From a virus (Duplodnaviria > Caudoviricetes), in the IMG/VR virus record IMGVR_UViG_3300042453_002018, positions 18,199 to 82,198 of that record: a stretch of 64,000 nt of DNA; one strand, given 5' to 3'. A model generated the notes under the pieces. The model was not told the DNA's origin and made no database searches. It was given only the letters and a program-made list of their open reading frames with translations. A program made the position numbers and the translations under genes. Each line of letters begins with the position of its first letter. The stretch's first letter is position 1. Positions 430 to 61,725 of the stretch are shown here, one piece after another.

Positions 430-3189
430 ATGAAATTTAGCGATTTTCTGCGTGAGCAGAAAGAAAAACATGCTGTCCTAGCATTTGGACGCATGAATCC
501 GATTACAAACGGTCACGAAAAAGTAGTTAAAACCGTTAAAAAACTTGCCAAACAAGTTGGCGGTTCACATCATATTGTCCTGTCACACTCACAGGATGCA
601 AAGAAAAATCCCCTTACAGTAGAACAAAAGATCAAACATGCTAAACATGCGTTTGCCGACACAAACTTTGTAGCAGCATCCAAAGAATCGCCTACATTCT
701 TTGATTATGCAGAAAAACTATACAAACAAGGCGTAACTCATCTTCACATGGTTGCTGGTTCTGATCGTGCTGTTGAATATGTAAAATTACTTCAAAAATA
801 TAATGGCACACATAAAGGTGCCCGTTTCAATTTCAAATATGTTGGTGTAGAATCCGCTGGTGAACGTGATCCAGATGCAGAAGGTGCAGAAGGAATTTCT
901 GCATCAAAGATGCGTGACGCTGCAAAGAACGGAGACTTTGATACTTTCAAAAAAGGTGCGCCATCAACAATGTCAGTTGCTCAAGTCAAACAAATGTATA
1001 ACGATGTTCGTAAAGGTATGAGACTTCATGAAGAAATACTTCGTGAAGGTGTTCATGACAAAGGTATTTTCAAAGCAGTATTTCTAGGTGGTGGTCCCGG
1101 TTCAGGTAAAGACTATGTGTTAAGCAAAACACTTGATGGTCATGGTCTGACAGAAATCAATTCTGACAAAGCACTTGAGTATTTGATGGACAAAGAAGGT
1201 CTTGATAAGAAGATGCCTGATGATGAAGAAGCACAACGTAATGCAGTTCGCAAGAGAGCAAAAAATGTAACGGAATTACGTCAGCGCCTTGCACTTCATG
1301 GACGTAATGGATTAATTATCAATGGTACAGGTGATGATCCAGAAAAGTATGCAAAACTTAAAGACATGCTTGAAAAGTTAGGCTATGAAACACAGATGAT
1401 CATGGTCAACACAGCAGACGAGGTTTCAAAAGAAAGAAACATCGAACGTGGTCAGCGCGGTGGTCGTACTGTACCAGAAAACATTCGTAAAGAAAAATGG
1501 GATTCTGTGCAAGCAGCACGACCAATGTTTGGTAAAATATTTCGTGACAATTACATTGAGTTTGATAATTCAGAAGATTTGCGTACCGCATCTCCAGATG
1601 TTGTGGAAGCAAAGACCAAAGAATTAGACGGCATTTTTAAGAGCGTACAAAAATTTGTTGCAAAACCACCTAAGAATGATGATGCAAAAGGCTGGATTGC
1701 TACTGAACTCGGCAAGAAAGATACCGCACCGATTCGTACCGACATGAAACCACACGCTGATGCAGGCACACATGATGACATGAACACGATGGGACTTGAA
1801 TACTATGGTTTTGGTCGTTATGGTAAAGATGGTAAAGTAACACACCGTTCTGTACACGGCAGTCTTGTGCCAGTTGAGAAGATTGCAAAAACTGTTGAAA
1901 CACATCAAAAGAAAATGTCAAAAGTAAATGAGGCATTTGATAAACTCATCAATGAAGCAGTTACAGTTTCGATTACTGGCGACACAGTAGAAGAAGTTAC
2001 TAAAACAATTCGTTTGCTGAAAACGGACGAAGAAGAAATGACTGAGGAAGAAGAAGTGAATACAATGTCTGATCCTGGTGCATACAATCTACTGACACTC
2101 GGTACAGGCATGATCAAAGAAGATTTGCGTAATTGGTTTAATCCAAAACATCCAGAGGGTGGTTGGAAACGAATCAATTCTAAAGGTGAAGCAATAGGTC
2201 CTTGTGCAAGAGAAGAGGGTGAACCAAAGCCAAAATGCATGTCAAATGCAAAGAGAGCAATGCTTTCTAAAAAAGAACGCGCATCAGCAGTTGCATCAAA
2301 ACGCCGTCATGATCCAAATCCAGAACGCAAGGGCGAACCAATTAATGTGTCAAGTTTTGGTAAAGGCAAAATTAGTGAAGCCGCATACGAGGGCAACATT
2401 GGCATGATGGAAGTTATGAAGTTCCATCAGAAAGCCACACCAGAACAAAAGAAAAAGTTCAAAGAACATCTTGCAAACAAAAATCACAAAGAAGCATGGA
2501 AAATGATTCAACATGTTTCTGGTACAAAGTTGATCGGTAAACAATTTGAAGAAACCGAAAAGAAGCAAAAACTGTTGACAGATAAAAATGGTAAACCAAG
2601 ATTGTTTTTCATTCGTGGTTCAGCAGCAAAAGAAGCACATCAAAAAAATGGTACAGTAGCAAAAGTTGGTAAAAGATATGTCGTTAAACTAAAAGAGGAC
2701 TTATATGAAGTACATTCACCTAATAATTCTGCGATTGAAGCAGTTTATGGACAGAATAACTCCACCCCGTCAGCCGAGCAACTTGGAAAAGTCAGAGCCA
2801 GTACTGGAAGAAAAGAACGACCAGCCCTCGACAAACCCGTTGCCGAAGGAAGAAGAACAATCAGTCTTGCCAGCATCAAAGAAAACTGGCAGAAAAAAAT
2901 CCAAGAGTCAATAGACAAAGGAATAGAACCAGGCATTTCAATGGCAGGTGCTGGTGAAAGCCCTGCAAGAGATATGGGTGAGAAACCAGATCGTGATGGT
3001 AAAGCAACACAAGTTACATGCAATGGTACAGGCGCAGGTGCAATATGTCCTAAACACGGAATGAAAAATTGCAGGCTTGCAGAATTAACTGGTGATGAAA
3101 CAACAGCAAGTATCGGCGATCAAAAAGAAGATGAATTGAAGAAAAAAGGTATATCACTCACAACATTCAAGAAAAAAAATTACATATGA
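430..3189 (+). CDS. multidomain head-associated protein: HxGH-type (cytidylyltransferase-like) nucleotidyltransferase + zeta-toxin-like P-loop kinase + small C-terminal domains
   Basis: FGRMNPITNGHEK, VAGSDR and ISASKMR motifs; AVFLGGGPGSGKD Walker A; N-terminus MKFSDFLRE resembles T4 capsid-targeting sequence. Confidence 0.75.
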   Translation: MKFSDFLREQKEKHAVLAFGRMNPITNGHEKVVKTVKKLAKQVGGSHHIVLSHSQDAKKNPLTVEQKIKHAKHAFADTNFVAASKESPTFFDYAEKLYKQGVTHLHMVAGSDRAVEYVKLLQKYNGTHKGARFNFKYVGVESAGERDPDAEGAEGISASKMRDAAKNGDFDTFKKGAPSTMSVAQVKQMYNDVRKGMRLHEEILREGVHDKGIFKAVFLGGGPGSGKDYVLSKTLDGHGLTEINSDKALEYLMDKEGLDKKMPDDEEAQRNAVRKRAKNVTELRQRLALHGRNGLIINGTGDDPEKYAKLKDMLEKLGYETQMIMVNTADEVSKERNIERGQRGGRTVPENIRKEKWDSVQAARPMFGKIFRDNYIEFDNSEDLRTASPDVVEAKTKELDGIFKSVQKFVAKPPKNDDAKGWIATELGKKDTAPIRTDMKPHADAGTHDDMNTMGLEYYGFGRYGKDGKVTHRSVHGSLVPVEKIAKTVETHQKKMSKVNEAFDKLINEAVTVSITGDTVEEVTKTIRLLKTDEEEMTEEEEVNTMSDPGAYNLLTLGTGMIKEDLRNWFNPKHPEGGWKRINSKGEAIGPCAREEGEPKPKCMSNAKRAMLSKKERASAVASKRRHDPNPERKGEPINVSSFGKGKISEAAYEGNIGMMEVMKFHQKATPEQKKKFKEHLANKNHKEAWKMIQHVSGTKLIGKQFEETEKKQKLLTDKNGKPRLFFIRGSAAKEAHQKNGTVAKVGKRYVVKLKEDLYEVHSPNNSAIEAVYGQNNSTPSAEQLGKVRASTGRKERPALDKPVAEGRRTISLASIKENWQKKIQESIDKGIEPGISMAGAGESPARDMGEKPDRDGKATQVTCNGTGAGAICPKHGMKNCRLAELTGDETTASIGDQKEDELKKKGISLTTFKKKNYI

Positions 3190-4212: not shown

Positions 4213-5523
4213 GTGGCACAGTTTAGAACAGACCTACACAAGATAGATTCGGGACAAGTATTCACTCGGTATGAAGTGAATATGATGTCTGATCGTCTTA
4301 CACCATCTGGCACAATTACGGATGCGTTTGGTCGTCTTCGTCTATCACAACCATTTACTCTTTTTGATAGCACACATCGCTTTGCTGACAACGGACTGTG
4401 GTCAACATCAAATACAGCAGGAAATAGTTCTTATAATTTTGTAACGAATAAAAGTCTCATTGAAATGACTGTAGGAACTACAGCAAATGCTGAAGTCATT
4501 CGTGAAACAACAAGAGTGTTTTCATATCAACCAGGTAAGTCTTTGTTAATGATGTCGTCATTTGCTATGGAAACACCTAAAGCAAATGTTCGTCAAAGAG
4601 TTGGTTATTATGGTGCTGAGAATGGTATCTATCTTGAGAATGATGGAACGACTAATTATTTCGTGTTGAGAAGCAATACAACAGGTACGATTACAGAAAC
4701 AAAAGTTGCACAAACAGATTGGAGTATAGACAAGTTTGACGGCACGGGTTATTCATCTCAAAGTGGTGGTGCTGAACATACTGATGGCATTGATATAAGT
4801 AAAACAAATATTCTCTGGATGGATGTTGAATGGCTTGGCGTTGGTGATGTTCGTTGTGGATTTGTGGTTGATGGTAAAATGGTTCCTGCCCACATATTTC
4901 ACAATGATAATAAGAATTTGGTTCCTTATATGACAACGGCATCTTTACCGTTGCGTTATGAAATCAAGAACACAGGTATTACAACAAGTAATTCCACACT
5001 CAAACAGATTTGTTCAACCGTTATGTCTGAAGGTGGATATGAATTGCTTGGATCGCAGCAAGCCGTAGGCACACCAGTTACTAGCCCAATTGATTTGGCC
5101 GCTGCTGGAACATATTATAATCTCATTTCTTTGAGATTGAAATCGGATAAATTAGATGCGATTGTCATTATTACTGCACTATCTTTATTAGCCTTAACTA
5201 ACAACTCATATTATAACTGGCAACTCAGGGCAGGTGGCACAACAACAGGTGGAACTTGGGTTAGTGCAGGAGATAATTCGTCTGTTGAATATAAATTAGA
5301 TGCCGCAACAATTTCAGGTGGAAGAATATTAGCATCGGGCTTTACAACTTCTACTACACAAAGCTCTATACCAGTGGATATTCTTAGAGAAGCACTATTC
5401 AAATTTCAATTAGAAAGAAATGGATTGACCAATACACCCTTCGAACTCACATTATGCGTAGCAGCATCAGTTAATGGTTCTGATATCTACGCATCGATGG
5501 ATTGGGAAGAAGTCACAAGATAA
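4213..5523 (+). CDS. virion structural protein (beta-rich)
   Basis: 436 aa Thr/Ser/Gly-rich; DAFGRLR and WLGVG motifs seen in phage structural proteins; late-gene context. Confidence 0.55.
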   Translation: MAQFRTDLHKIDSGQVFTRYEVNMMSDRLTPSGTITDAFGRLRLSQPFTLFDSTHRFADNGLWSTSNTAGNSSYNFVTNKSLIEMTVGTTANAEVIRETTRVFSYQPGKSLLMMSSFAMETPKANVRQRVGYYGAENGIYLENDGTTNYFVLRSNTTGTITETKVAQTDWSIDKFDGTGYSSQSGGAEHTDGIDISKTNILWMDVEWLGVGDVRCGFVVDGKMVPAHIFHNDNKNLVPYMTTASLPLRYEIKNTGITTSNSTLKQICSTVMSEGGYELLGSQQAVGTPVTSPIDLAAAGTYYNLISLRLKSDKLDAIVIITALSLLALTNNSYYNWQLRAGGTTTGGTWVSAGDNSSVEYKLDAATISGGRILASGFTTSTTQSSIPVDILREALFKFQLERNGLTNTPFELTLCVAASVNGSDIYASMDWEEVTR

Positions 5524-5548
5524 CAAAAACTAAATCAGGAGAACAAAA

Positions 5549-7063
5549 ATGTCAATTTTTCATGACAAAAATCTAAAAAGTGTTGCGGAAGCAGCAGCAA
5601 AGATCATGGCTGAAACAAGTCATGAATTAAAGGGCAACCAACATAAAATTGACGCCAATAAAAATGGCAAAATTGATGCTCACGACTTTAAGCTTCTGCG
5701 TGGTAAGAAAGACACAAAGAAAGACATGCAAGAAGGTGTTAAAGGTGCAGCAGTTGGTGGTGCATTAGGTGCTATGGCAGGTGGTCCAGTTGGCGCAGCA
5801 GTTGGTGGTGCATTAGGTCATGCGGCTGGTGAGGTTCTTTCAAGCGCAAAAAATAAAGCAAAAACAATGGGTCGTGTTGCTGTGGGTCCTTCAATGGCCG
5901 ATAGCAAAATGAAGAAAGAAGAGATTGAGCAACTTGATGAAGTTGGTGATACACCATCAGGTAGAAAAACACTAAGCTCATATGTCAACAAAGCAATTGG
6001 TGACAAATCAAAAGATCGCTCAAAAGGTTTGCGTAAAGCAACATCACGCCTCTACAAAGACAACTTCTACGGCAAAAAAACAAATGAAGAAGTTGAACAG
6101 ATTGATGAGATCAGTTTAGATTTAGCAAAAAGAGCCAGAGATAAAGCCGAGCATATGGTTGATGCGGATCATGACGATATGAGAGATAAACCATATGGTT
6201 ATAGTGAAAAGCAAAGAGTCAAGTTTCAAAAATACGTTGACAAAAAAGAGTCAAAGAAAAACGTAAAAGAAGAAGTTGAACTTGATGAAGCATTTCCAAC
6301 TGTAGCAGATGCAAAGAAGCGTATGGATGCAGGTAAAACAGCAACAGGTTCAGTCACAAAAACTGCAACAGGTCTTGTTCATAAGCGTGACTACAAAGAT
6401 GATGATAATGATGAAGCACCAAAAAAATCAACAGGTTATGGCGCGCGTCAAAACTACAAGCGTTCAACCCGTGTCAATGAGGCAGCATCATTTACAGAAA
6501 TGCTTGAACTGTACAATGAGCATGGTCTGAAAGTGTTAGCACCAATTGAAACAGAAGAGATGGACATTGATGGCACGATGATTGAAGTTATTGATGCAGA
6601 TCAAGTGAACGGTTTCGTTCAAACTGAAATTGAGGAAGGCATCATGGACGTTGCAAAAGGTGCGGTAGGTGTAGTAAAAAATGTCATTTCAAAAGAAAAA
6701 GAGTATCAAGCACAAAAGCAGAAAAAAGCAGGCGAAGTTTTGAGAAAACTTCGTAAAGAAGAATCACTATCAGAAGAACCAACAAATGATGAGTTCACAA
6801 AAGAATATGAAGACCAAAAAGCAAGTTTTGAAGGTAAAAAGAAACAACCAAAAGTTGCTGCTGGTAAAACAACTGGTGTAAAAGAAATGCCTGAGAGTTA
6901 TCAGCAAATTGATGAGCGTGAACTATCAACTGGTGAAGCCAAGAAAAAAGAAGAATATGTCAAAGGCATGAAGAAGGGTCTTTCTGGCTTTAAACAGCGT
7001 TATGGTGAACGTGCTAAATCTGTAATGTATGCAACGGCTACAAAAATGGCTAAAAAGGACTAA
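5549..7063 (+). CDS. charged head-associated polyprotein with repeated E-x-x-E-Q-[LI]-D-E linkers
   Basis: EEIEQLDE, EEVEQIDE, EEVELDE, QIDE repeats; EF-hand-like DANKNGKIDAHDF; glycine-zipper segment; RBS AGGAG. Confidence 0.65.
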   Translation: MSIFHDKNLKSVAEAAAKIMAETSHELKGNQHKIDANKNGKIDAHDFKLLRGKKDTKKDMQEGVKGAAVGGALGAMAGGPVGAAVGGALGHAAGEVLSSAKNKAKTMGRVAVGPSMADSKMKKEEIEQLDEVGDTPSGRKTLSSYVNKAIGDKSKDRSKGLRKATSRLYKDNFYGKKTNEEVEQIDEISLDLAKRARDKAEHMVDADHDDMRDKPYGYSEKQRVKFQKYVDKKESKKNVKEEVELDEAFPTVADAKKRMDAGKTATGSVTKTATGLVHKRDYKDDDNDEAPKKSTGYGARQNYKRSTRVNEAASFTEMLELYNEHGLKVLAPIETEEMDIDGTMIEVIDADQVNGFVQTEIEEGIMDVAKGAVGVVKNVISKEKEYQAQKQKKAGEVLRKLRKEESLSEEPTNDEFTKEYEDQKASFEGKKKQPKVAAGKTTGVKEMPESYQQIDERELSTGEAKKKEEYVKGMKKGLSGFKQRYGERAKSVMYATATKMAKKD

Positions 7064-7065
7064 TT

Positions 7066-8322
7066 ATGTCAGTCGCAGATAAATTACATCAACGACAAAT
7101 GGCTCTGCGTAAGAAGTCGGGACTACCACATCCCGACTATTACAAAGAGTTGGGGCATTCATACAATATTTCTGATGATAACGAAAGACTTGCGAAGCAG
7201 GCTGAAATCAAAAAGAAATATAAAGTTGAAGAAGTTGAACAACTTGATGAGATGCCAGAGTCAAGCATGAAGACACGCGATGTTCATGCACATTTAAAAA
7301 AGTCTGGCTGGTCACTCAAACGCACAGGTGGTGGTCATGATGTTTATGCTCACCCCAAATCAGAGAAACATATTGCTGTGCCAAGACATAAACAACTCAA
7401 AGCACCATTAATTCGTGGTATTATGAAAGCATCAAGAGTTTCTGAAGAAACCGAAATTGATGAGCAACTTCACAAGAAAGGAAAGTTTGTGTCAGGTCCA
7501 GTTAAAAAACCATACAAATCACCTACCGTGGTTTCACCAATTAGAGAAGCAAAAGATTCGCGTGAGTATGATTACGAAGGCGATATGGCAATGTCACAAC
7601 TTCGGTCGTTAGTTTTTAATGCAGAAGATTTGATGGAAATGATGGATGAAAACACAAATCTTCCTGAGTGGGTGCAATCAAAAATTACACTTGCTGAAGA
7701 TTATATCTCTACAGCAGCAAACTATCTGCGTGGTGAATTATCGGAGTCGGTTAGTTTGAATGAAGGTCGTCCATCACAGCGTCATCCACTAGAGGGTCAT
7801 GAGTATCACAAAAAATCTAATGCCGAGTTGATTGGTATTGCTAAAGATGCACACGCTGCTGCTGAAGCAATGAAAGGACACAGTCCACGGGCAGAGAACA
7901 AATATCGTGATCAAGCAAACGATTCTGCAACAGTAAGATATTTCCGTCAAAAGAGTGGCATGCCCGACTGGTACAAGAAGAAGTATGGACATGTCAAGGA
8001 AGAAGTTGAACAGTTGGAAGAAAAGAATGTACCAACTTCACCTGAGAAGTGGGCGCAGGCTAAAGCACAAGCAAAGCAAAAGTTTGATGTATATCCTTCA
8101 GCATATGCAAATGGTTGGGCTGCAAAGAAATACAAAGAAATGGGTGGTGGTTGGAAGTCTGTAAACGAAGACACGGATGATCCAAGCGCAGCAGCAAGAA
8201 CTCTGTCACGTAAAGCACAAATCGTGAGAGATGCCGCAAAAGGAAAAAAGCAAGAACAAGAACAGGCATCGGACAAGTTTCAAAAAGACCCCGAATTGTC
8301 TAGCGATATGCAGAAAACATAA
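7066..8322 (+). CDS. head-associated polyprotein containing a HicA-like domain
   Basis: aa 68-124 MKTRDVHAHLKKSGWSLKRTGGGHDVYAHP...IAVPRH...LIRGIMK between EEVEQLDE and EETEIDE linkers. Confidence 0.7.
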   Translation: MSVADKLHQRQMALRKKSGLPHPDYYKELGHSYNISDDNERLAKQAEIKKKYKVEEVEQLDEMPESSMKTRDVHAHLKKSGWSLKRTGGGHDVYAHPKSEKHIAVPRHKQLKAPLIRGIMKASRVSEETEIDEQLHKKGKFVSGPVKKPYKSPTVVSPIREAKDSREYDYEGDMAMSQLRSLVFNAEDLMEMMDENTNLPEWVQSKITLAEDYISTAANYLRGELSESVSLNEGRPSQRHPLEGHEYHKKSNAELIGIAKDAHAAAEAMKGHSPRAENKYRDQANDSATVRYFRQKSGMPDWYKKKYGHVKEEVEQLEEKNVPTSPEKWAQAKAQAKQKFDVYPSAYANGWAAKKYKEMGGGWKSVNEDTDDPSAAARTLSRKAQIVRDAAKGKKQEQEQASDKFQKDPELSSDMQKT

Positions 8323-21245: not shown

Positions 21246-22652
21246 ATGAAACTATTTAAAAAATTATCTATCGTAGTTGCACTTGCAGCAGTAATTCCTG
21301 CATATGCTGATGAGTATAAAGATACATTGAATATTCTAAGAGAGAAGAATATAATCACTCAAAAAGAATATGAATCAAAACTCAATGCATATGAAGAAAA
21401 AGAAGAAAACAAAAAGTTTGCAGAACAAAGAATCGATAAAGATGTTAGTGATTCGGTCAAATATAGACAAGCAAGAGCAAACGACGGTTCAGTCACAGAA
21501 AATGGACTTGGACTCAAATCAAAAGATGGTAACAATACGGCGCAGTTTACAGGTCGAATTCACATGGACTATCGACACTACACACCAGATTACGGTGTCG
21601 GTCAAACCACGGATTCGTATCAGAACTTAGCAGAAGTTCGTCGTGCAAGATTTGGTGTTCGTGGCCAGTTTGCAAAAGACTTCAAATATCAATTACTAGC
21701 AAACTTTGGTGCAAGTGATGGCTTTAGTTCTACATCATCAACAGCAGATGAGATGTGGGTAAACTATGCAGCAAATCCAGAAATGCAATTTCAATTTGGT
21801 TTATTCAAGATGCCATTTAGTCTTGAACAAATGACAAGTTCAAACAATCTAGATTTTATGGAACGTAGTTTGATTGGTCAGAATGATACTGAATTTATTC
21901 CTGCAAAAGAAACTGGTTTCATGTTACATGGTGTGCCAAAAGCTGGTCTTACATATGCTATAGCAGCAAGTAGAGGCAAATCCAATAAGAGCGCAGAGTT
22001 CGATGGACTTGATTATATTGGTCGTGTAACAACTAATATTGCTGAACTAACAGGCAGCAAAGCATATACTGCACACTTGGGTGCAGCATACAGCACAGGT
22101 GAAATTAAGAGTGGTGTTGCACCAGCCAGTGGTAGAACAGAATCTCGTATGCAGTCTGGTTGGTTTACCGGTCCTGCATTGGGTGGTGCTACTACAAGAA
22201 CACGACAGGGACTTGAAGCAGCATTTGCATATAACGGTTTAAAAGTTCAAGGCGAACAGTTCAATTTTAAATATGATGCTGCAACAGGTAGTGACCAAGA
22301 AATCAAAGGGTACTATGTACAAGCAGTTTATAATTTAACTGGTGAATCACATGCATACAAAGATGGTGCGTTTGGTTGGATTAAACCAAATAATCCAATC
22401 GACAAAGGTGGTCGTGGTGCATGGCAAGTTGGTGTGCGTATGAGTGAGTTTGATGCAAGTGATGTATCCGTTGCAACAGGCAAATCAAATCGTGCTACTG
22501 CTATGACATATGGCATCACCTGGTTCTGTACCGACAATCTACGTTTCATGTTAAACTATGTTGATACTAAGTTTGATGCGTTAGTTGGTTCTTCAGGTAG
22601 TCGTGTAACAGGTGATAAAGCAATTATGTTTAGAAGTCAATTAAGCTTCTAA
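21246..22652 (+). CDS. OprO/OprP-family phosphate-selective porin
   Basis: signal peptide; RRARFG, GLFKMPFSLE, FMERS; C-terminal Phe; follows pstS. Confidence 0.85.
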   Translation: MKLFKKLSIVVALAAVIPAYADEYKDTLNILREKNIITQKEYESKLNAYEEKEENKKFAEQRIDKDVSDSVKYRQARANDGSVTENGLGLKSKDGNNTAQFTGRIHMDYRHYTPDYGVGQTTDSYQNLAEVRRARFGVRGQFAKDFKYQLLANFGASDGFSSTSSTADEMWVNYAANPEMQFQFGLFKMPFSLEQMTSSNNLDFMERSLIGQNDTEFIPAKETGFMLHGVPKAGLTYAIAASRGKSNKSAEFDGLDYIGRVTTNIAELTGSKAYTAHLGAAYSTGEIKSGVAPASGRTESRMQSGWFTGPALGGATTRTRQGLEAAFAYNGLKVQGEQFNFKYDAATGSDQEIKGYYVQAVYNLTGESHAYKDGAFGWIKPNNPIDKGGRGAWQVGVRMSEFDASDVSVATGKSNRATAMTYGITWFCTDNLRFMLNYVDTKFDALVGSSGSRVTGDKAIMFRSQLSF

Positions 22653-27728: not shown

Positions 27729-27815
27729 GCGACTATGGTGAAACAGGTATACACAGCAGACTTAAAATCTGCCGCTCGAAAGGGCATGCCAGTTCGATTC
27801 TGGCTAGTCGCACCA
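27729..27815 (+). tRNA. tRNA-Leu(TAA)
   Basis: cloverleaf, loop CTTAAAA, long variable arm, TTCGATT, CCA. Confidence 0.92.
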
Positions 27816-27820
27816 ATTTC

Positions 27821-27897
27821 GGGCTGTTAGCTTAAATGGTCAAAGCAGCCGACTCATAATCGGTTGAGTGCGGGTTCAAGTCCTGCACAGCCCACCA
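27821..27897 (+). tRNA. tRNA-CAT (Met or lysidine Ile2)
   Basis: loop CTCATAA, TTCAAGT, CCA. Confidence 0.88.
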
Positions 27898-27903
27898 AAC
27901 AAC

Positions 27904-27978
27904 GCGGCTATCGTATAATGGATAATACAGGGGATTTCTACTCCCTAAATGTGGGTTCGATTCCTGCTAGCCGTGCCA
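27904..27978 (+). tRNA. tRNA-Arg(TCT)
   Basis: GGGGA-TTTCTAC-TCCCT anticodon arm; GCCA end. Confidence 0.88.
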
Positions 27979-42482: not shown

Positions 42483-42547
42483 ATTGTAGTTTAGTTCAGA
42501 CTGTATACAAACCCCAAAGCCCACAAAGTTTTGGGGTTTTTTGTTTT
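42470..42547 (+). terminator. attenuator: antiterminator 42470-42482/42501-42513 overlapping intrinsic terminator 42509-42520/42528-42539 + U-tract
   Basis: GGTTTGTGTATAG pairs CTGTATACAAACC (13 bp); AAACCCCAAAGC pairs GTTTTGGGGTTT (12 bp), then T-run. Confidence 0.75.
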
Positions 42548-42551
42548 ATAA

Positions 42552-42630
42552 CTGGGTGTATTGTCAGCCTGGTCAGACGGCTCGCCTTGGAAGTGAGAGG
42601 ACGCAGGTTCAAATCCTGCCACCCAGACCA
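42552..42630 (+). tRNA. tRNA-Pro(TGG)
   Basis: loop CTTGGAA; TTCAAAT; CCA. Confidence 0.88.
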
Positions 42631-42642
42631 AAAAAAAAGTAG

Positions 42643-42701
42643 TTGACAGAGTTTTGGTTGTTGTGTAGAATGATGTTTGTTGATTGATTGTTCTTTAAAA
42701 A
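42643..42701 (+). promoter_or_regulatory. sigma70 promoter followed by boxA-like antitermination site
   Basis: TTGACA-N17-TAGAAT, then TGTTCTTTAAAA (rrn boxA TGCTCTTTAACA) just before tRNA-Glu. Confidence 0.65.
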
Positions 42702-42712
42702 ATTTGTGACAT

Positions 42713-42787
42713 GCACCGTTCGTCTATCGGTTAGGACATTGCCCTTTCACGGCAGTAAGAGGAGTTCGATTCTCCTACGGTGTACCA
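42713..42787 (+). tRNA. tRNA-Glu(TTC)
   Basis: loop CTTTCAC; CCA. Confidence 0.92.
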
Positions 42788-42797
42788 ATTATAGTAT

Positions 42798-42874
42798 GGG
42801 TGTGTAACTCAGTTGGTTAGAGTATCAGACTTTTAATCTGAGAGTCGTGAGTTCGAATCTCACCACACCTACCA
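42798..42874 (+). tRNA. tRNA-Lys(TTT)
   Basis: loop CTTTTAA; CCA. Confidence 0.92.
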
Positions 42875-42937
42875 TATTGAAGCACATTGGCTTGTAAAGC
42901 GGTGAAGTATTCGTAAAGTTAGTGTGTTTCAATATGG
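42872..42937 (+). ncRNA. inter-tRNA stem-closed element 1
   Basis: CCATATTGAAGCACATT...AGTGTGTTTCAATATGG inverted ends. Confidence 0.55.
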
Positions 42938-43012
42938 CACTTTAGTTCAGTTGGTCAGAACGCTGCCCTGTCACGGCAGAGGTCAGGGATTCGAATTCCC
43001 TAAGTGTCGCCA
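42936..43012 (+). tRNA. tRNA-Asp(GTC)
   Basis: loop CTGTCAC; GCCA. Confidence 0.92.
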
Positions 43013-43018
43013 GAATAT

Positions 43019-43094
43019 TGACCGAAACGCACAACGGTGTGCGGCCAGACTGTTAATCTGTGTGAGACAGGTTCGATCCCTGTTCGGTCAGCCA
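43019..43094 (+). tRNA. tRNA-Asn(GTT)
   Basis: loop CTGTTAA; GCCA. Confidence 0.85.
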
Positions 43095-43095
43095 A

Positions 43096-43279
43096 GTTCC
43101 GGTTACTACTTTCCTGAAAGTAGCGTGTAACGACGATAATTGTTCGGTGGCTATGGCACCGTTAGCGCAGTCGAATGCAGACAACATAGCAGCGTGGACA
43201 CTACGTAGCAAAGTGCTTTTAGTGTTCGGACAGGGAAACAACTCCAGCATAGGGGCGACCGTGGAAAGCGTGGCCTAAG
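43096..43279 (+). ncRNA. unidentified structured RNA in tRNA array
   Basis: GC-richer non-coding stretch with several hairpins (CTACTTT/AAAGTAG, CGGTG/CACCG, GGACACTA/TAGTGTTC). Confidence 0.45.
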
Positions 43280-43407
43280 CAATATTAAATTTGCAGTTTG
43301 TAAGCCATGGGCTTGATCATGCCTGAGTAACTATGTACACACACGGTAAGTCCAGCTGGCAATTCCGTTGAGCATAGCAAATAGTGCAGACTGCAATTCT
43401 AATATTG
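43280..43407 (+). ncRNA. unidentified stem-closed RNA in tRNA array
   Basis: CAATATTA..TTGCAGTTTGTA pairs TGCAGACTGCAA..TAATATTG. Confidence 0.5.
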
Positions 43408-43408
43408 T

Positions 43409-43482
43409 TGGGGATTGGTGAAATGGTATCACACTGGATTTTGATTCCAAGGTCGTAAGTTCGATTCTTACATCCCCTGCCA
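43409..43482 (+). tRNA. tRNA-Gln(TTG)
   Basis: loop TTTTGAT; GCCA. Confidence 0.88.
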
Positions 43483-43489
43483 GTATTAT

Positions 43490-43573
43490 GGGTAACGAGC
43501 AGCATTGGTGACTGCACCTGACTGTAAATCAGACGCTTCGGCATACTTGGTTCGACTCCGAGGTTACCCACCA
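43490..43573 (+). tRNA. tRNA-Tyr(GTA)
   Basis: loop CTGTAAA; variable arm; CCA. Confidence 0.9.
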
Positions 43574-43574
43574 A

Positions 43575-43650
43575 CGGTCTTTAGTAAAATGGATTATTAC
43601 GGTGGGCTACGGACCCGCAGGTGGGAGTTCGATTCTCTCAAGACCGTCCA
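43575..43650 (+). tRNA. tRNA-Arg(ACG)
   Basis: loop CTACGGA; CCA. Confidence 0.88.
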
Positions 43651-43724
43651 TATTGAAGTGTACTCTTTGAGGTCTTGGTCGTTACCAGCGTAGCAAAAAC
43701 GGCGACAGAGTACACTTCAATGTG
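43649..43724 (+). ncRNA. inter-tRNA stem-closed element 2
   Basis: CATATTGAAGTGTACTCT...AGAGTACACTTCAATGTG, 18-bp stem. Confidence 0.55.
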
Positions 43725-43729
43725 AGAGT

Positions 43730-43826
43730 CCATATTGAAGTGTTGTTTAGGGTGGCATGTAAAAGTTTAACAAGACTTTGAGGGCTGGAATTCCCGATCT
43801 GTGAACAGCAGAACACTTCAATATGG
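43730..43826 (+). ncRNA. inter-tRNA stem-closed element 3
   Basis: CCATATTGAAGTGTT...AACACTTCAATATGG. Confidence 0.55.
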
Positions 43827-43900
43827 GGGATTGGTGCTAATTGGGAACACATGTGCTTTGCAAGCATGAGTAAGCAGTTCGAATCTGCTATCCTCCACCA
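43825..43900 (+). tRNA. tRNA-Ala(TGC)
   Basis: loop TTTGCAA; G3:U70; CCA. Confidence 0.92.
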
Positions 43901-43910
43901 AAGTTTTATT

Positions 43911-43986
43911 GCCGATTTAGCTCATCTGGTAGAGCAGGCGCCTTGTAAGCGTCAGGTGGTGGGTTCAAGTCCTGCAATCGGCACCA
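43911..43986 (+). tRNA. tRNA-Thr(TGT)
   Basis: loop CTTGTAA; CCA. Confidence 0.92.
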
Positions 43987-43992
43987 GACTAT

Positions 43993-44068
43993 CGCAGAGT
44001 ATGGAAGTGGTCATCCGCTTGGTCTCATAAGCCGAGAATCGCAGGTTCGAATCCTGCCTCTGCAACCA
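43993..44068 (+). tRNA. initiator-like tRNA-fMet(CAT)
   Basis: C1:A72 mismatch; loop CTCATAA; CCA. Confidence 0.85.
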
Positions 44069-44081
44069 TTATAGGTGAATC

Positions 44082-44549
44082 ATGAAAAAAGAAATTGATG
44101 TGAACGAAGTGGCTGCATTTCTTGATACGTGTGGTCCTGATACGAAAGTTTATATTGGTGCTGATTCTGAGCGTTTTCAAGTAAACGGTGAATGGTATGC
44201 TGATTACATTCTTGCTGTTGTTGTTCATATCGATGGTCGTCATGGTTGCAAGATATTTGGTGCAGTCCAGCGTGAGCGTGATTTTGAACAAAAGAAAAAT
44301 CGTCCACGTTTTCGTTTGATGAATGAAGTATACAAAGTAGCTGATTTATATTTGAAATTGTATGAAGCAATACCACATGATATTCAAGTGCATTTAGATA
44401 TTAATCCAAGTGAGATGCATGGTAGTTCGTGCGTAGTAAACGAAGCAATTGGTTATATCAAAGGTACTTGTAATGTCGTACCATTGATCAAGCCAAAAGC
44501 TTTTGCTGCAAGTTATGCAGCCGATAGATTTAAAAGTTTAGTAGCGTAA
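44082..44549 (+). CDS. RNase H-like YkuK-family protein
   Basis: VYIGADS, RLMNEV, VHLDIN, AASYAAD; inside tRNA array. Confidence 0.75.
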   Translation: MKKEIDVNEVAAFLDTCGPDTKVYIGADSERFQVNGEWYADYILAVVVHIDGRHGCKIFGAVQRERDFEQKKNRPRFRLMNEVYKVADLYLKLYEAIPHDIQVHLDINPSEMHGSSCVVNEAIGYIKGTCNVVPLIKPKAFAASYAADRFKSLVA

Positions 44550-44550
44550 T

Positions 44551-44624
44551 CTCGGTGTAGTTTAATGGCAGAACCACGGTCTCCAAAACCGTATGTGGGA
44601 GTTCGATTCTCTCCACCGAGGCCA
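44551..44624 (+). tRNA. tRNA-Trp(CCA)
   Basis: loop CTCCAAA; GCCA. Confidence 0.9.
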
Positions 44625-44626
44625 AT

Positions 44627-44701
44627 GGTGTCTATGGTGTAGTGGTAGCATTACTCTCTGTGAAAGAGTAGGTACGGGGTCGGTACCCGTTAGACACCCC
44701 A
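44627..44701 (+). tRNA. tRNA-His(GTG), atypical T-loop
   Basis: G-1:C73; loop CTGTGAA; T-loop GTCGGTA. Confidence 0.8.
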
Positions 44702-44705
44702 ATTT

Positions 44706-44779
44706 TGTCCTGTAGTTAAATGGTATAACTGTCGATTGATAATCGACCATTACAAGTTCAATTCTTGTCGGGACAACCA
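44706..44779 (+). tRNA. tRNA-Ile(GAT)
   Basis: loop TTGATAA; CCA. Confidence 0.88.
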
Positions 44780-44781
44780 AT

Positions 44782-44856
44782 GGTAGTGTAGCATAACGGT
44801 AGTGCGCCACCTTCATACGGTGTCAGGTGTAAGTTCGAATCTTACCACTACTACCA
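44782..44856 (+). tRNA. tRNA-Met(CAT)
   Basis: loop TTCATAC; CCA. Confidence 0.85.
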
Positions 44857-44857
44857 T

Positions 44858-44933
44858 GCGCTGGTGACGGAACGGTATACGTGTTGGTCTTAGAAACCAA
44901 ATTTTGAGAGTTCGAATCTCTCCTAGCGCACCA
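44858..44933 (+). tRNA. tRNA-Leu(TAG), short variable arm
   Basis: loop CTTAGAA; 76 nt; CCA. Confidence 0.85.
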
Positions 44934-44957
44934 TATAAGTATCGCGTGTGAGGCTGT

Positions 44958-45032
44958 GCATCGTTAGTTCAGCGGTAGAATCCCTGCCTTACAAGCAGGT
45001 TGTCGGTGGTTCGAATCCATCACGATGCACCA
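44958..45032 (+). tRNA. tRNA-Val(TAC)
   Basis: loop CTTACAA; CCA. Confidence 0.92.
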
Positions 45033-45037
45033 ATTAT

Positions 45038-45115
45038 GCAACGGTGGCAGAGTGGCCCAATGCAAGAGTCTGCAAAACTCTAAAACCGTCGGTTCAAATC
45101 CGACCCGTTGCTCCA
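45038..45115 (+). tRNA. tRNA-Cys(GCA)
   Basis: loop CTGCAAA; U73 discriminator; CCA. Confidence 0.9.
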
Positions 45116-45120
45116 GTTAG

Positions 45121-45208
45121 GGAAGTGTGGATGAGTGGTTTAAATCAGCAGTCTTGAAAACTGCCGATCAGAAATGATCCGTGAGTTCGAATCTCACCGC
45201 TTCCGCCA
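45121..45208 (+). tRNA. tRNA-Ser(TGA)
   Basis: loop CTTGAAA; long variable arm; GCCA. Confidence 0.92.
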
Positions 45209-45223
45209 TTTAAAGGAAAAATT

Positions 45224-45628
45224 ATGTTAGAATGTTTAATTGTTGGTGATAGCATCGGTGTTGGTGTGAGTCAAGTTCGTAGGGAGTGTGTTGCATATGT
45301 GAAGAGTGGTATCAATTCACATAATTGGAATAAAATCTATATGAATAAACTACAACCGACAAAAACTTTGATTATCAGTCTTGGTGCAAATGATTTAGGT
45401 ATCAACACAGAAGGAAATATTCGGTCATTACGAACAAATGCACAAGCACAAAAAGTTTTTTGGCTTTTACCGAGTCAAAAATTGAAGCCAAAACAAGTAG
45501 AAGCAGTAAAACAAGTCGCAGCAGAGTTTGGAGATGTAGTAATTTCTCGACCAGAGAGTGATATTAGTGCGGATGGTGTACATCCTACTGGAAAAGGTTA
45601 CAAAAAACTTGCGGATCAGACACGGTAA
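45224..45628 (+). CDS. SGNH/GDSL hydrolase-like protein
   Basis: GDSI, SLGAND, DGVHPT..GY blocks. Confidence 0.8.
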   Translation: MLECLIVGDSIGVGVSQVRRECVAYVKSGINSHNWNKIYMNKLQPTKTLIISLGANDLGINTEGNIRSLRTNAQAQKVFWLLPSQKLKPKQVEAVKQVAAEFGDVVISRPESDISADGVHPTGKGYKKLADQTR

Positions 45629-45715
45629 GTTGGATGAGAGGCTTAAATCAGCGGTTTGCTAAACCGTCGAGCGTAGAAATACGTTCCGTGGGTTCAAATC
45701 CCACACTTACCGCCA
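45624..45715 (+). tRNA. tRNA-Ser(GCT)
   Basis: loop TTGCTAA; long variable arm; 5' end overlaps stop codon of upstream CDS. Confidence 0.9.
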
Positions 45716-45760
45716 TTATAATTGACAAAATTTGAGTTTTCTGACATAATAGAGTCTATC

Positions 45761-45922
45761 ATGAGTACGAAAAACACGAAAAAATTGCAAAAGCCGCGAA
45801 ATTTTGTCGCAAAAGACTTATTCACACCGAAATATCGGATGAAAATTGAACATTCTGCGATAAATTTTTACAGTCGAGCAGCCGAAAAACAAAATTTACG
45901 GAAAAACTATGCCTTCTTCTGA
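45761..45922 (+). CDS. small basic protein, weakly ArfA-like
   Basis: RNFVAKDLFTPKYRMKIE...YSR; behind promoter at 45722. Confidence 0.5.
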   Translation: MSTKNTKKLQKPRNFVAKDLFTPKYRMKIEHSAINFYSRAAEKQNLRKNYAFF

Positions 45923-46343
45923 TGAAAAGTTGCAAAAAGCTGAAGCCGAAAGTGTAAACGGCGATGAAATGAGTAAATTTGATGGTTTTTACTTTGTTCC
46001 TGACTATGATGACTTTGAGGAAAACTATAAATTAGCGTTTTTTAACTTTAAAGAAGAATGGACACAAGCGGAACCGATTGAAAAGTCTGAAATGGGCTAC
46101 AAATATCATATGGCATTTTTTAAAGAGAACGAAGAAGGTATGCCTGAGTTTGAAGATGCGTTTGAAGCCATTTTAGTTGATCCTTTAGTGTATATAAAAA
46201 ATCTAGTGGGTTCAGGAATATCAGGTTGTATCGTCAAAAAGACTGAGCAGTCAGATAATTGGTGGACTGAGTATCTTGATTTCATTACAAATGGTACATT
46301 CAAGAAAAAAGTCAATGAAGCGTTAAAATCTTTAGCGGAGTAA
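45909..46343 (+). CDS. hypothetical protein
   Basis: ORF track. Confidence 0.5.
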   Translation: MPSSDEKLQKAEAESVNGDEMSKFDGFYFVPDYDDFEENYKLAFFNFKEEWTQAEPIEKSEMGYKYHMAFFKENEEGMPEFEDAFEAILVDPLVYIKNLVGSGISGCIVKKTEQSDNWWTEYLDFITNGTFKKKVNEALKSLAE

Positions 46344-46346
46344 ATT

Positions 46347-46640
46347 ATGAATCCAAATGTTTTTTCAGGTAATACAGAAGATGCAAGAATTGGTCGTGAA
46401 TGGCTGATTGGTCTTTTAGAACAGTCTCCAGTTGAAGTGATTTTCACAAAAAAAGACGGAACTGAACGTACAATGAAATGTACATTGATGGAAAAATTTC
46501 TTCCTGAAACTGTAGGCTCAGATAGACCGAAAAATGATGAAACTCTTGCAGTTTATGATTTAGAAAAAGAAGGTTGGCGTTCTTTTCGTTGGGATTCAAT
46601 TAAAGAAGTTCATTTTTCATTGGGGAGTGAAAATGCCTAA
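46347..46640 (+). CDS. SH3/WYL-like beta-barrel protein
   Basis: FTKKDGTERTMKCT...VYDLEKEGWRSFR. Confidence 0.7.
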   Translation: MNPNVFSGNTEDARIGREWLIGLLEQSPVEVIFTKKDGTERTMKCTLMEKFLPETVGSDRPKNDETLAVYDLEKEGWRSFRWDSIKEVHFSLGSENA

Positions 46641-46930
46641 GTATATTGTTGAACAATTGTCCGTTTTTCGAAATGTTTATGTCATTGAAGCCGATTCTGA
46701 AGAAGAAGCAGTAAAAATTTCTGAGTATGCTGATGACAATTGGCAAGAATGGCTCGGATGCATGAAAGTTGATATCAATGAATACACCGATGAACGAATT
46801 GCATACTTCAAAGACAAAGATTATTTTTGGGCTGGCGTAACATACAAAGACAAAGATGGATATATTGCATATCATCATCCATCAGGTGAAGATGTAGAAC
46901 GCAAAGAAATCCTTATCAAGTAAATCAAAC

Positions 46931-47004
46931 GCGGGATTAGTTTAATGGTAAAACGTGAGCCTTCCAAGCTCCTGTTATCAGTTCGATTCTGATATCCCGC
47001 TCCA
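46931..47004 (+). tRNA. tRNA-Gly(TCC)
   Basis: GCGGG start; loop CTTCCAA; TCCA. Confidence 0.92.
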
Positions 47005-60535: not shown

Positions 60536-60685
60536 TTATGCAAATTAGTGAACAAGATTATTACGAAAGATTTGAAGCATACTTGAAAGAATGTGGTTCT
60601 AATCCAGGCACAACATTCTTTGGTGCATGGGGTTGGTATGCAGCAAGAAAAAATGAATTTGATGCAATAATGCAAGAAGACGGAA

Positions 60686-60934
60686 TTGTTGTAACTCCTT
60701 CAAAGTGAAGGCATTCTGGACCCGGGTTCGATCCCCGGCATCTCCACCAAAAGTATTCTTGTCCATGGAGTTGGGAACGGAAAGATAAACCGTGAGAATA
60801 CTTTTGATGGGGATGACATGGCTTCGACAGGGTGAGATAGCGGAGAAGGCAACACAGTAGGCGATGACTGTAAATCAAGCAAATCTACAAATGCAAACGA
60901 TGCATTTTACGGAGAAGAACGCCTAGCAGCGTAA
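60686..60934 (+). ncRNA. ssrA: permuted two-piece tmRNA; tag (A)NDAFYGEERLAA*
   Basis: T-arm + CATCTCCACCA (ends 60749) precedes GGGGATG (60809) with G3:U pair; resume codon GCA at 60893, TAA at 60932-60934; 5' boundary approximate. Confidence 0.88.
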
Positions 60935-61002
60935 CTCTCATGGGGTTTAAGTGGGGTGTACCTTATTACCAAAACACCCTACACCAAATTCAGAGATACA
61001 TT

Positions 61003-61725
61003 ATGAAAGTAAACATTGGTCCTTATACAAACTGGTTCGGTCCCTATCAATTAGCAGACTTACTTTGCTTCTGGGCAAAGAAAGTACCCGATGAGTGTGG
61101 CTTTTCACGAAAGCCTGATTGGGTTCACGACTTTGGTACATGGCTTGCAGAAGATCGAAACGGTAACGACTCTTGGTTGACTAAAGTTTGCCAAAAGATT
61201 GAAGAGTACAAGAAGCGCAAAATCAAAATACGCATTGACAAGTATGACACATGGTCAATGGATCACACATTAGGTATGATCGTTTTGCCGATGTTGAAAC
61301 AGTTGCGTGATACTAAACACGGTTCACCACTAGTTGATACAGAAGATGTGCCAGAAGAACTACGTATTAGTGGTTATGACGATTGTTCTTCCCAACTTGA
61401 ATTGAAGTTTGAAGATGATGAAGAATTTCAAAAAAAATCTTGGGACATCACACATCGTCGTTGGGAATGGGTGTTGAATGAAATGATTTTTGCATTTGAA
61501 CACCTCATTGACGATTCGTGGGAAGAAGCATATCGTTCGGGTAATATTGATACACATTCTGTGCCGTGTGAATGGGATGCAGATGGTAAACCAATACTCT
61601 ACACATTTGAACACGGACCAAATCACACATACGAATGTGATTACGATGGCATGAAAAAAGTTTATGATCGTATGGATAACGGTTTTCGTTTATTTGGTAA
61701 ATACTACAGAGGACTTTGGGATTGA
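61003..61725 (+). CDS. conserved phage hypothetical protein
   Basis: IDKYDTWSMDHTL..I.LPML.QL...GFRLFGKYY..LWD. Confidence 0.7.
   Translation: MKVNIGPYTNWFGPYQLADLLCFWAKKVPDECGFSRKPDWVHDFGTWLAEDRNGNDSWLTKVCQKIEEYKKRKIKIRIDKYDTWSMDHTLGMIVLPMLKQLRDTKHGSPLVDTEDVPEELRISGYDDCSSQLELKFEDDEEFQKKSWDITHRRWEWVLNEMIFAFEHLIDDSWEEAYRSGNIDTHSVPCEWDADGKPILYTFEHGPNHTYECDYDGMKKVYDRMDNGFRLFGKYYRGLWD

Follow-up and report, generated by a model that had tools for sequence, protein, structure and literature searches.

Hairpin cassettes with a conserved stem and interchangeable interiors from tRNA gene arrays of aquatic T4-like phages

Hairpin cassettes between phage tRNA genes

Here we describe hairpin cassettes that lie between the tRNA genes of an uncultured, T4-like freshwater phage, in a window of 64 kb (by which we mean the whole stretch of DNA analysed) from the 82-kb IMG/VR viral contig IMGVR_UViG_3300042453_002018, itself estimated to represent about 50% of the genome. 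Three such cassettes, e1, e2 and e3 (Table 1), have in common the closing stem CCAUAUUGAAG.../...CUUCAAUAUGG around interiors ("cargos") that differ from one another, and they are members of a real, widespread and apparently undescribed family. This family is found in phages only, namely in T4-like phages of aquatic environments. On balance, and with moderate confidence, the sequence patterns described below lead us to view the cassettes as probable small RNAs, co-transcribed with the tRNAs, in which a shared processing or stability handle is combined with an interchangeable functional cargo.

Read directly, CATATTGAAG and (C/T)TTCAAT(A/G)TG are the terminal inverted repeats of all three spacers, as an earlier sequence-only reading of this DNA had stated, and the closing helix of e1-e3 fits the family form CCAUAUUGAAG-YRCAUU / ARUGYR-CUUCAAUAUGG. 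Within the window, exact copies of CATATTGAAG are confined to e1-e3 (four in all), and copies with at most one mismatch number 12, versus 7.95 expected. Each cassette is predicted to fold into a single hairpin closed by its own ends: e1 at -29.8 kcal/mol (z -7.9, with 22 bp including four G.U pairs), e2 at -32.1 kcal/mol (z -5.7 versus shuffles) and e3 at -31.9 kcal/mol (z -4.1 versus shuffles). The stems in the window span 15-22 bp, about two turns of double-stranded RNA, and the interior of e3, at 67 nt, forms two or three small hairpins. All the window cassettes are co-oriented with the tRNAs of the array.

Size and distribution of the family

When an exact pattern of the stem was scanned over 2.9 million viral contigs, 44 stretches with an interior of 25-55 nt and 99 with an interior of 56-86 nt were obtained. 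Among the 44, about six (loci L004/L046, L024/L027, L044 and L045) match by chance and have no tRNAs and no stem beyond the imposed bases; in the remaining ones the helix extends, with the same bases, beyond what the pattern requires. When a regular expression was applied to the fetched viral loci and stems of 14 bp or more were kept, 165 non-redundant elements were obtained, and 148 non-redundant elements have a known tRNA orientation. We also built a covariance model, R1, from 26 sense-oriented copies (alignment A1). Since e1 and e2 are among these seeds they match R1 by construction, but e3, which is not a seed, matches as well. R1 matched 80 places in the window and 46 loci. A further 89 loci yielded 334 strand matches (E ≤ 0.01); single arrays frequently hold several, and L123 has up to five cassettes within about 1 kb. 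The covariance-model search across phage tRNA arrays that the sequence-only reading had suggested returned many homologs, and their stems covary.

The same pattern, run on one genome per species for 185,579 bacterial and archaeal species (596 Gb), yielded 67 matches, 57 of which have only the imposed 10-11 pairs and four of which reach at least 14 pairs. The only family-like cellular match lies on a 744-bp contig that carries three tRNAs and was binned into a Polynucleobacter metagenome-assembled genome; the contig is probably of phage origin. All six records that carry elements and have a completeness of 95% or more encode a major capsid protein of the T4 type, as does Synechococcus phage BUCT-ZZ01 (ON615601.1), the one named carrier. 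BUCT-ZZ01 has three R1 matches (117247-117369, 123303-123389 and 128721-128827, each on the minus strand), one of them directly abutting a permuted transfer-messenger RNA (tmRNA) gene, and is one of five named phages, picked by DUF458 similarity, on which both the pattern and R1 were run; R1 has no match in the other four (DLP6, BUDD, DSS3P8 and RHph_I1_18). There are pattern matches in BUCT-ZZ01 and BUDD outside R1 matches, and these look like chance. A megablast search of the array against named phages gave tRNA-sized matches only, and a blastn search of a 59-nt canonical element against them gave none at E ≤ 10, a weak negative because an 18-nt stem is near the detection limit. Our literature search found no description of the stem or of the family, although a catalogue of 8,495 candidate structured RNAs from IMG/VR (PMC10690425) may contain the family or some of its cargos.

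Selection on the stem

Across the 148 oriented copies the lower stem has 17 bp and the consensus R-CCAUAUUGAAG-CACAUU / AGUGUG-CUUCAAUAUGG-U, whereas complete stems in the family range from 15 to 23 bp, 17-20 bp being the commonest lengths. Pairs 1-11 hardly vary, and pair 16 is conserved as a U.G wobble (U.G in 112 copies, Watson-Crick in 25, other in four). Positions 2-11 were imposed by the search pattern, and their invariance in the pattern-found set is uninformative; the positions that were not required (1-2 and 12-17) are conserved at 68-93%. Even the "constant" part varies with compensation among R1 matches, for example AUUAAAG/CUUUAAU, GAAAC/GUUUC, AUAAAAAC/GUUUCUAU and UUUGAG/CUCAAA. 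In the alignment of the 26 seeds 97.4% of cells pair, versus 90.6% in shuffles, and double changes occur in 7 of the 18 pairs; covariation scores 0.251 versus 0.113, a level reached by none of 500 shuffles and above all slid controls.

On the tRNA-sense strand the stems of the 148 elements hold 229 G.U pairs versus 30 A.C pairs, or 117 versus 30 when pair 16 is left out (52 versus 6 in a smaller first count). Moreover, the tRNA strand is the better R1 strand at 62 of 64 places; since R1 was built from sense-oriented seeds, this should be read as constant orientation of asymmetric features and not as independent proof. These pairing patterns show that selection, of the type expected for RNA, acts on the helix as a folded single strand, in the orientation of the tRNAs.

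A diverged fourth cassette (Table 1) had also been proposed, on account of its closed-stem design. It does have a closed fold (z -2.95), with an outer stem of a CCATATTAGA type, diverged from that of the family, and an interior that consists of a conserved three-hairpin RNA (GUAAGCCAUGGGC.., GCCUGAGUAACUA.. and AGCAAAUAGUGCAG), and seven of its pairs show compensatory changes among six sequences (the window and five other contigs). R1 did not match this element.

Diversity and exchange of the cargos

The cargos are about 20-110 nt in size and differ from copy to copy, the 148 elements falling into 110 unrelated cargo clusters, 83 of which are singletons. The notion of a constant scaffold with variable cargo, put forward in the sequence-only reading from three copies, is therefore now strongly supported by hundreds of copies in contigs of T4-like phages, by asymmetry between the strands and covariation in the stems, by over 100 cargo types that have no relation to one another, by the conservation of a cargo irrespective of its stem and by the swap of a cargo at a syntenic site (see below). 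Some cargos do recur. That of e2 is present in the window and in L065, L067, L131 and L026 and varies there in only about five of 46 columns, although across the same five phages both partners have changed in seven pairs of the stem; going by these substitutions, the e2-type interior is under tighter sequence constraint than its scaffold. Copies of e3 that are 99-100% identical were found in L090, L092, L100 and L105, whereas the e1 cargo has no homolog among the fetched loci. The motif CTTTGAGG(T/G)CT is indeed common to e2 and e3, as had been noticed, and CTTTGAGG is restricted to these two cargo types (three of the 148 oriented members).

Across unrelated cargos the sole enriched 7-mer is GGTTCGA, which corresponds to a T-loop and occurs in 11 of 109 clusters, versus a maximum of six in shuffles. 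The longer form GGTTCRANTCC is carried by 14 cargos, so that about 10% of cargos have a T-loop, and it adjoins the 3' strand, in the normal order of a tRNA. One T-loop-bearing cargo (L041, 5851-5944) also contains the 10-nt word GUACGAGAGG, which we take to be a word of the sarcin-ricin loop of 23S rRNA; because it was found in only one of the 165 elements we treat it as chance.

Cargo exchange is seen in L011, which is syntenic with the window in the order Pro-Glu-Lys-[E]-Asp-Asn-Gln-Tyr-Arg-[E]-Ala-Thr-Met, where [E] is a cassette. Its tRNA-Arg has four differences in 76 nt and is followed by the shared stem start, then by an unrelated cargo and an open reading frame (ORF) for an HNH endonuclease. 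Finding an unrelated cargo at a syntenic site implies that cassettes are exchanged as units between close relatives. The cargos are, to judge from their conservation and turnover, independent modules that are at least sometimes functional. Complementarity of the interiors to phage sequence, another idea of the sequence-only reading, did not exceed chance in the phage's own 82 kb, and neither did identity: against the rest of this contig the longest exact matches are 10-13 nt, no better than shuffles. In E. coli genomes e2 and e3 have no match.

Relation to tRNAs

The stems had been described as starting at the CCA of an upstream tRNA and/or ending at the 5' G of the next one, and this holds in the window at tRNA-Lys, -Asp, -Arg and -Ala. 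Of the 148 elements in the family, 65 open precisely at the CCA of the upstream tRNA and 30 reach 1-2 nt into the tRNA that follows, but 78 have no adjoining detected tRNA. Of the latter, 56 nevertheless open with CCA, and thus the CCA/UGG pairs belong to the element itself.

One may therefore consider that the hairpin is mere punctuation, that is, that it only matures the flanking tRNAs, by a cut after the CCA and at the next 5' end, with the interior as filler. The precise abutment on tRNAs would be expected in this case, as would the BUCT-ZZ01 copy that directly precedes a permuted tmRNA and the spacer of the two-piece tmRNA in the window, which has the same closed-stem design. However, most tRNA-tRNA junctions in the array of the window are 1-10 nt long and hairpin-free, so a dedicated role in tRNA processing is unlikely to be the whole story. 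The many elements with no adjoining detected tRNA, the tandem cassettes (such as e2-e3, or those of L123), the e2 cargo that is better kept than its stem and the covariation of cargo helices all speak against a filler. We therefore regard a dedicated processing signal alone, which the sequence-only reading had offered as its other option, as quite unlikely.

Processing, function and rival explanations

If the cassettes are small RNAs with a shared handle, transcription would begin at the promoter-like site at 42643 and include them as part of the tRNA operon, and cuts at or in the constant helix would release them. The released RNAs would then persist, both ends being sealed in an exonuclease-resistant duplex of 17-22 bp, and the cargo would be the working part. 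The most likely single route would combine RNase P at the 5' end of the next tRNA with a host nuclease of the RNase III type acting on the double strand; alternatively, a single-strand cut could be made just after the CCA, before the helix closes, where AUAUU resembles the sequence preference of RNase E. In either case release at or in the helix would make it a shared handle for processing, stability or protein binding. It is reasonable to suppose, as was done before, that tRNA processing takes part in the release. RNase III is present in Synechococcus elongatus, the cultured host of BUCT-ZZ01, which gave matches in the control of our RNase III search.

Several observations weigh against this reading. 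Public sequencing runs that hold part of the stretch number 20, of which 14 are DNA (lake, fresh, drinking or other water, or unspecified metagenomes) and six RNA; in four freshwater metatranscriptome runs the cover of the hairpins is near zero to 9, versus 60-185 on neighbouring RNAs, although this cover was taken from contigs, in which RNA ends are invisible and short tight hairpins are poorly recovered, so that missing cover is no proof of absence. None of 15 records encodes an RNase III of the phage's own, and when 872 ORFs of 33 loci were clustered no protein family was present in more than six loci that could be a shared neighbour. A perfect A-form helix offers proteins little readable sequence, and a sequence-blind nuclease such as RNase III is therefore a poor explanation of why the lower 11 bp hardly vary; indeed, neither cut route explains these constant pairs and the U.G wobble, which suggests a factor that reads sequence or a second, DNA-level role of the arms in cassette exchange. 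Folded single-stranded DNA also tolerates G.T pairs, and because of this the strand asymmetry alone is compatible with a DNA-level hairpin. Finally, replacement of cargos between close relatives is equally expected from neutral shuffling.

These points lead to an alternative in which the inverted repeats are recombination or mobility sites, serving as short homology arms or as single-strand DNA hairpins by which T4-like phages swap cassettes between their tRNA arrays, perhaps triggered by homing endonucleases of these arrays, any RNA being a by-product. It would account for the L011 site, where a near-identical tRNA-Arg is followed by an unrelated cargo and an HNH ORF, for the GIY-YIG-like ORF in the L041 array, and for cargos that occur in different contexts (the e2 cargo in L065 with no adjoining detected tRNA; the E59 cargo after Lys in L014 and before Asp in L011). 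Also, the lower stem is near-identical in contigs with almost no common neighbour proteins, as recent spread would give. On the other hand, a tyrosine recombinase (PF00589) was found in none of eight element-bearing records, six of them at least 95% complete; there is no target-site duplication, the flanks being complementary (R at -1, U at +1); and the interiors differ between copies, which is not the behaviour of a miniature inverted-repeat transposable element (MITE). Orientation is fixed relative to the tRNAs at all but two of the places compared, G.U pairs far outnumber A.C pairs, and where the cargo is the same the upper stem differs by compensatory point changes, which points to selection for pairing rather than to copying of a fixed end. 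We consider a purely DNA-level element rather unlikely.

As for what the small RNAs would do, the most concrete guess is that the cargos are mimics or decoys of tRNA-like RNAs: the T-loop subset, together with the turnover of cargos between relatives, would agree with a role in misleading host factors whose targets are such RNAs. One may go further and picture the constant helix as a universal socket, read by a single processing or binding factor, for RNA effectors that are swapped by recombination (over 100 cargo types, sealed tRNA look-alikes among them) and serve as decoys or inhibitors of RNA-targeting host defences, for instance tRNA nucleases and tRNA-modifying toxins, but this is a speculative extension that we hold to be unlikely.

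Neighbouring spacer RNAs

An RNA-library contig of 210 nt carries an e3-like cargo (corresponding to 43751-43819, with four differences) in other flanks. Separate from the cassettes, the spacer of 314 nt between Asn and Gln holds, in its first two thirds (window 43095-43285), another highly conserved structured RNA (about 43109-43234) that is present in at least seven phage contigs and has seven pairs with compensatory changes. It is the best-covered part of the array outside the tRNAs, with a depth of 53-185 in three freshwater metatranscriptome runs, and one of the runs has sequencing adaptors next to 43109 and 43234, which suggests a discrete RNA of about 126 nt. This RNA has no Rfam match at E ≤ 10, the 314-nt spacer has no match in the named phages, and L011 lacks the RNA, having 8 nt between Asn and Gln. 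A second recurrent family of inter-tRNA spacers, absent from the window, was seen in L012, L026, L029, L037 and L040; it consists of CCA, (A)GTTTTAGGAT, a variable stretch and CAGCAA, followed by ATCCTGTTG shortly before the next tRNA.

Comparison with known systems

A match to a known Rfam family, which the sequence-only reading had named as counter-evidence, was not found: the window at gathering score and 42600-43900 at E ≤ 10 gave only tRNAs, tmRNA and noise-level microRNA matches.

The closest precedents are rnaC (species 1) and rnaD (species 2) of T4, which are likewise co-oriented, non-tRNA small RNAs within the tRNA cluster of a T4-type phage. Species 1 RNA is reportedly cleaved by RNase III in vitro. 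In addition, rnaC has a tRNA-like T-arm, as do about a tenth of the cargos here, and by annotation a homing endonuclease gene, segB, adjoins the pair. However, they are two single RNAs rather than a multi-copy family with one scaffold and swappable interiors, and they lack the CCAUAUUGAAG stem. Identity with them was rejected, since R1, with filters off, gave a best score of only 5.5 bits (E 3.2) in the T4 tRNA region. The biological roles of rnaC and rnaD are given as unknown (PMC3014915).

The stalks cut by RNase III, such as those flanking 16S and 23S rRNA and the early-RNA sites of phage T7, are similar in that long helices flank an RNA destined to be freed from a longer, polycistronic one. 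The cassettes differ in the U.G wobble fixed at pair 16, and the conservation of their stem far exceeds any sequence requirement that RNase III is known to have.

Y RNAs, including the YrlA RNAs of bacteria and phages, also combine a terminal stem with a variable module that is in some cases tRNA-like, and one may ask whether the constant stem is a binding helix for Ro60/Rsr with the cargo as effector module. The long stem made from the two ends, the variable module and the T-loops would agree with this, and in the L041 array there is a separate sub-threshold YrlA match outside the hairpins. Nevertheless, the stem sequence and the order of modules differ: the T-loop lies next to the 3' strand in the cargos, whereas the order is permuted in the YrlA model. 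Neither RF02553 (YrlA) nor RF00019 (Y_RNA) matches the elements of the window even at E ≤ 10, and the 82-kb contig, about half of the genome, has no match to either TROVE (Ro60) or RtcB. This explanation is thus very improbable. The L041 match itself (5493-5606) comprises two tandem tRNA-like halves and is full-length, at 40.6 bits (gathering score 69) and E 1.6e-7; the same array holds at least five constant-stem cassettes.

The attC sites of integrons, which span 57-141 bp and alternate with short gene cassettes, are imperfect inverted repeats whose ends are conserved and whose centre varies; they are strand-asymmetric, being folded as single strands. Our cassettes resemble them in the conserved ends, the variable centre and the strand asymmetry, but occur in lytic T4-like phages with no integrase (none in eight records), and have longer, more conserved ends and conserved, structured centres. 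An identity with attC was accordingly rejected on the absence of PF00589. Ends of MITEs or transposons were likewise rejected, the flanks being complementary and not direct repeats and the interiors not being kept, as were intrinsic terminators: no element shows the signature of a G+C-rich hairpin followed by a T run, and the stems of e1-e3 are followed on the 3' side by a tRNA or another cassette.

Lastly, the segment that is removed during maturation of permuted, two-piece tmRNA also comes right after a CCA and is closed by a stem. In the window it lies at 60747-60810, starts right after the CCA and has a stem of 10-11 bp (AAAGTATTCT / AGAATACTTT). The sequence-only reading had likened its design to that of the cassettes; the closed-stem design is there, but in sequence the stem AAAGUAUUCU is unlike those of the family and R1 does not match the segment, so it does not belong to the family. 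The tag peptide of this tmRNA reads ANDAFYGEERLAA.

The locus and its neighbouring genes

A scan of the whole window found 21 genes in the tRNA array (42552-47004, plus strand), three further tRNAs at 27729-27978 and the permuted tmRNA at 60657-61025. The features that surround the cassettes are given in Table 1.

Table 1. Cassettes and adjoining features of the tRNA array (window positions).
Feature	Positions	Strand	Remarks
Terminator-like hairpin	42509-42539		Just upstream of the promoter-like site
Sigma-70-like promoter match	42643-42671	+	TTGACA, 17-nt spacer, TAGAAT; a consensus match only (11/12); upstream of tRNA-Glu
tRNA-Lys(UUU)	42798-42874	+	3' CCA (42872-42874) forms the first three stem pairs of e1
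Cassette e1	42872-42937	+	Stem CCAUAUUGAAGCACAUUGGCUU / AAGUUAGUGUGUUUCAAUAUGG, short interior; R1 59.9 bits
tRNA-Asp	42936-43012	+	Initial GG doubles as the final two bases of the e1 stem
Diverged fourth cassette	43280-43407	+	Outer stem CAAUAUUAAA..UCUAAUAUUG; ends 1 nt short of tRNA-Gln
tRNA-Arg(ACG)	43575-43650	+	CCA (43648-43650) opens e2
Cassette e2	43648-43725	+	Cargo CUCUUUGAGGUCUUGGUCGUUACCAGCGUAGCAAAAACGGCGACAGAG; R1 44.1 bits
Cassette e3	43730-43826	+	4 nt 3' of e2; R1 36.8 bits
tRNA-Ala	43825-43900	+	First two bases close e3

The array of the window also contains, at 44082-44549, a gene for a DUF458/YkuK RNase-H-like protein, for which a link with the cassettes had been suggested. 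Although the gene is present in six of the eight element-bearing records, it is missing from two of the six complete ones, and it is found in four named phages that have no element. Being neither necessary nor sufficient, it is therefore not a dedicated partner. ORFs of homing-endonuclease type, recognised by sequence reading only, lie inside arrays next to cassettes in L011 (about 7480-7990, with an HNH motif) and in L041 (3068-3758, with a GIY-YIG-like N-terminus). Elsewhere in the window, a homolog of phosphate-selective porin O/P (21246-22652, E 2.6e-48) is likely to be an auxiliary metabolic gene, and a protein of 919 aa (430-3189) combines cytidylyltransferase-like and zeta-toxin/AAA_33 kinase-like domains.

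Implications

That phage tRNA clusters carry extra small RNAs, such as rnaC and rnaD of T4, has been known for fifty years. What the present family adds is a single modular plan for RNAs of this kind throughout a broad group of T4-like phages from aquatic environments, with one conserved helix and more than 100 swappable cargos. Turnover of the cargos even between close relatives is typical of loci engaged in an arms race, and if the helix were indeed a socket for effectors, the hairpin cassettes would be the non-coding counterpart of the counter-defence role that has been proposed for the tRNA array. With many natural variants at hand, and one cultured pair (BUCT-ZZ01 on Synechococcus elongatus PCC 7942), the function of cassette RNAs becomes testable, and the constant stem could also serve as a generic handle for the expression of stable small RNAs.

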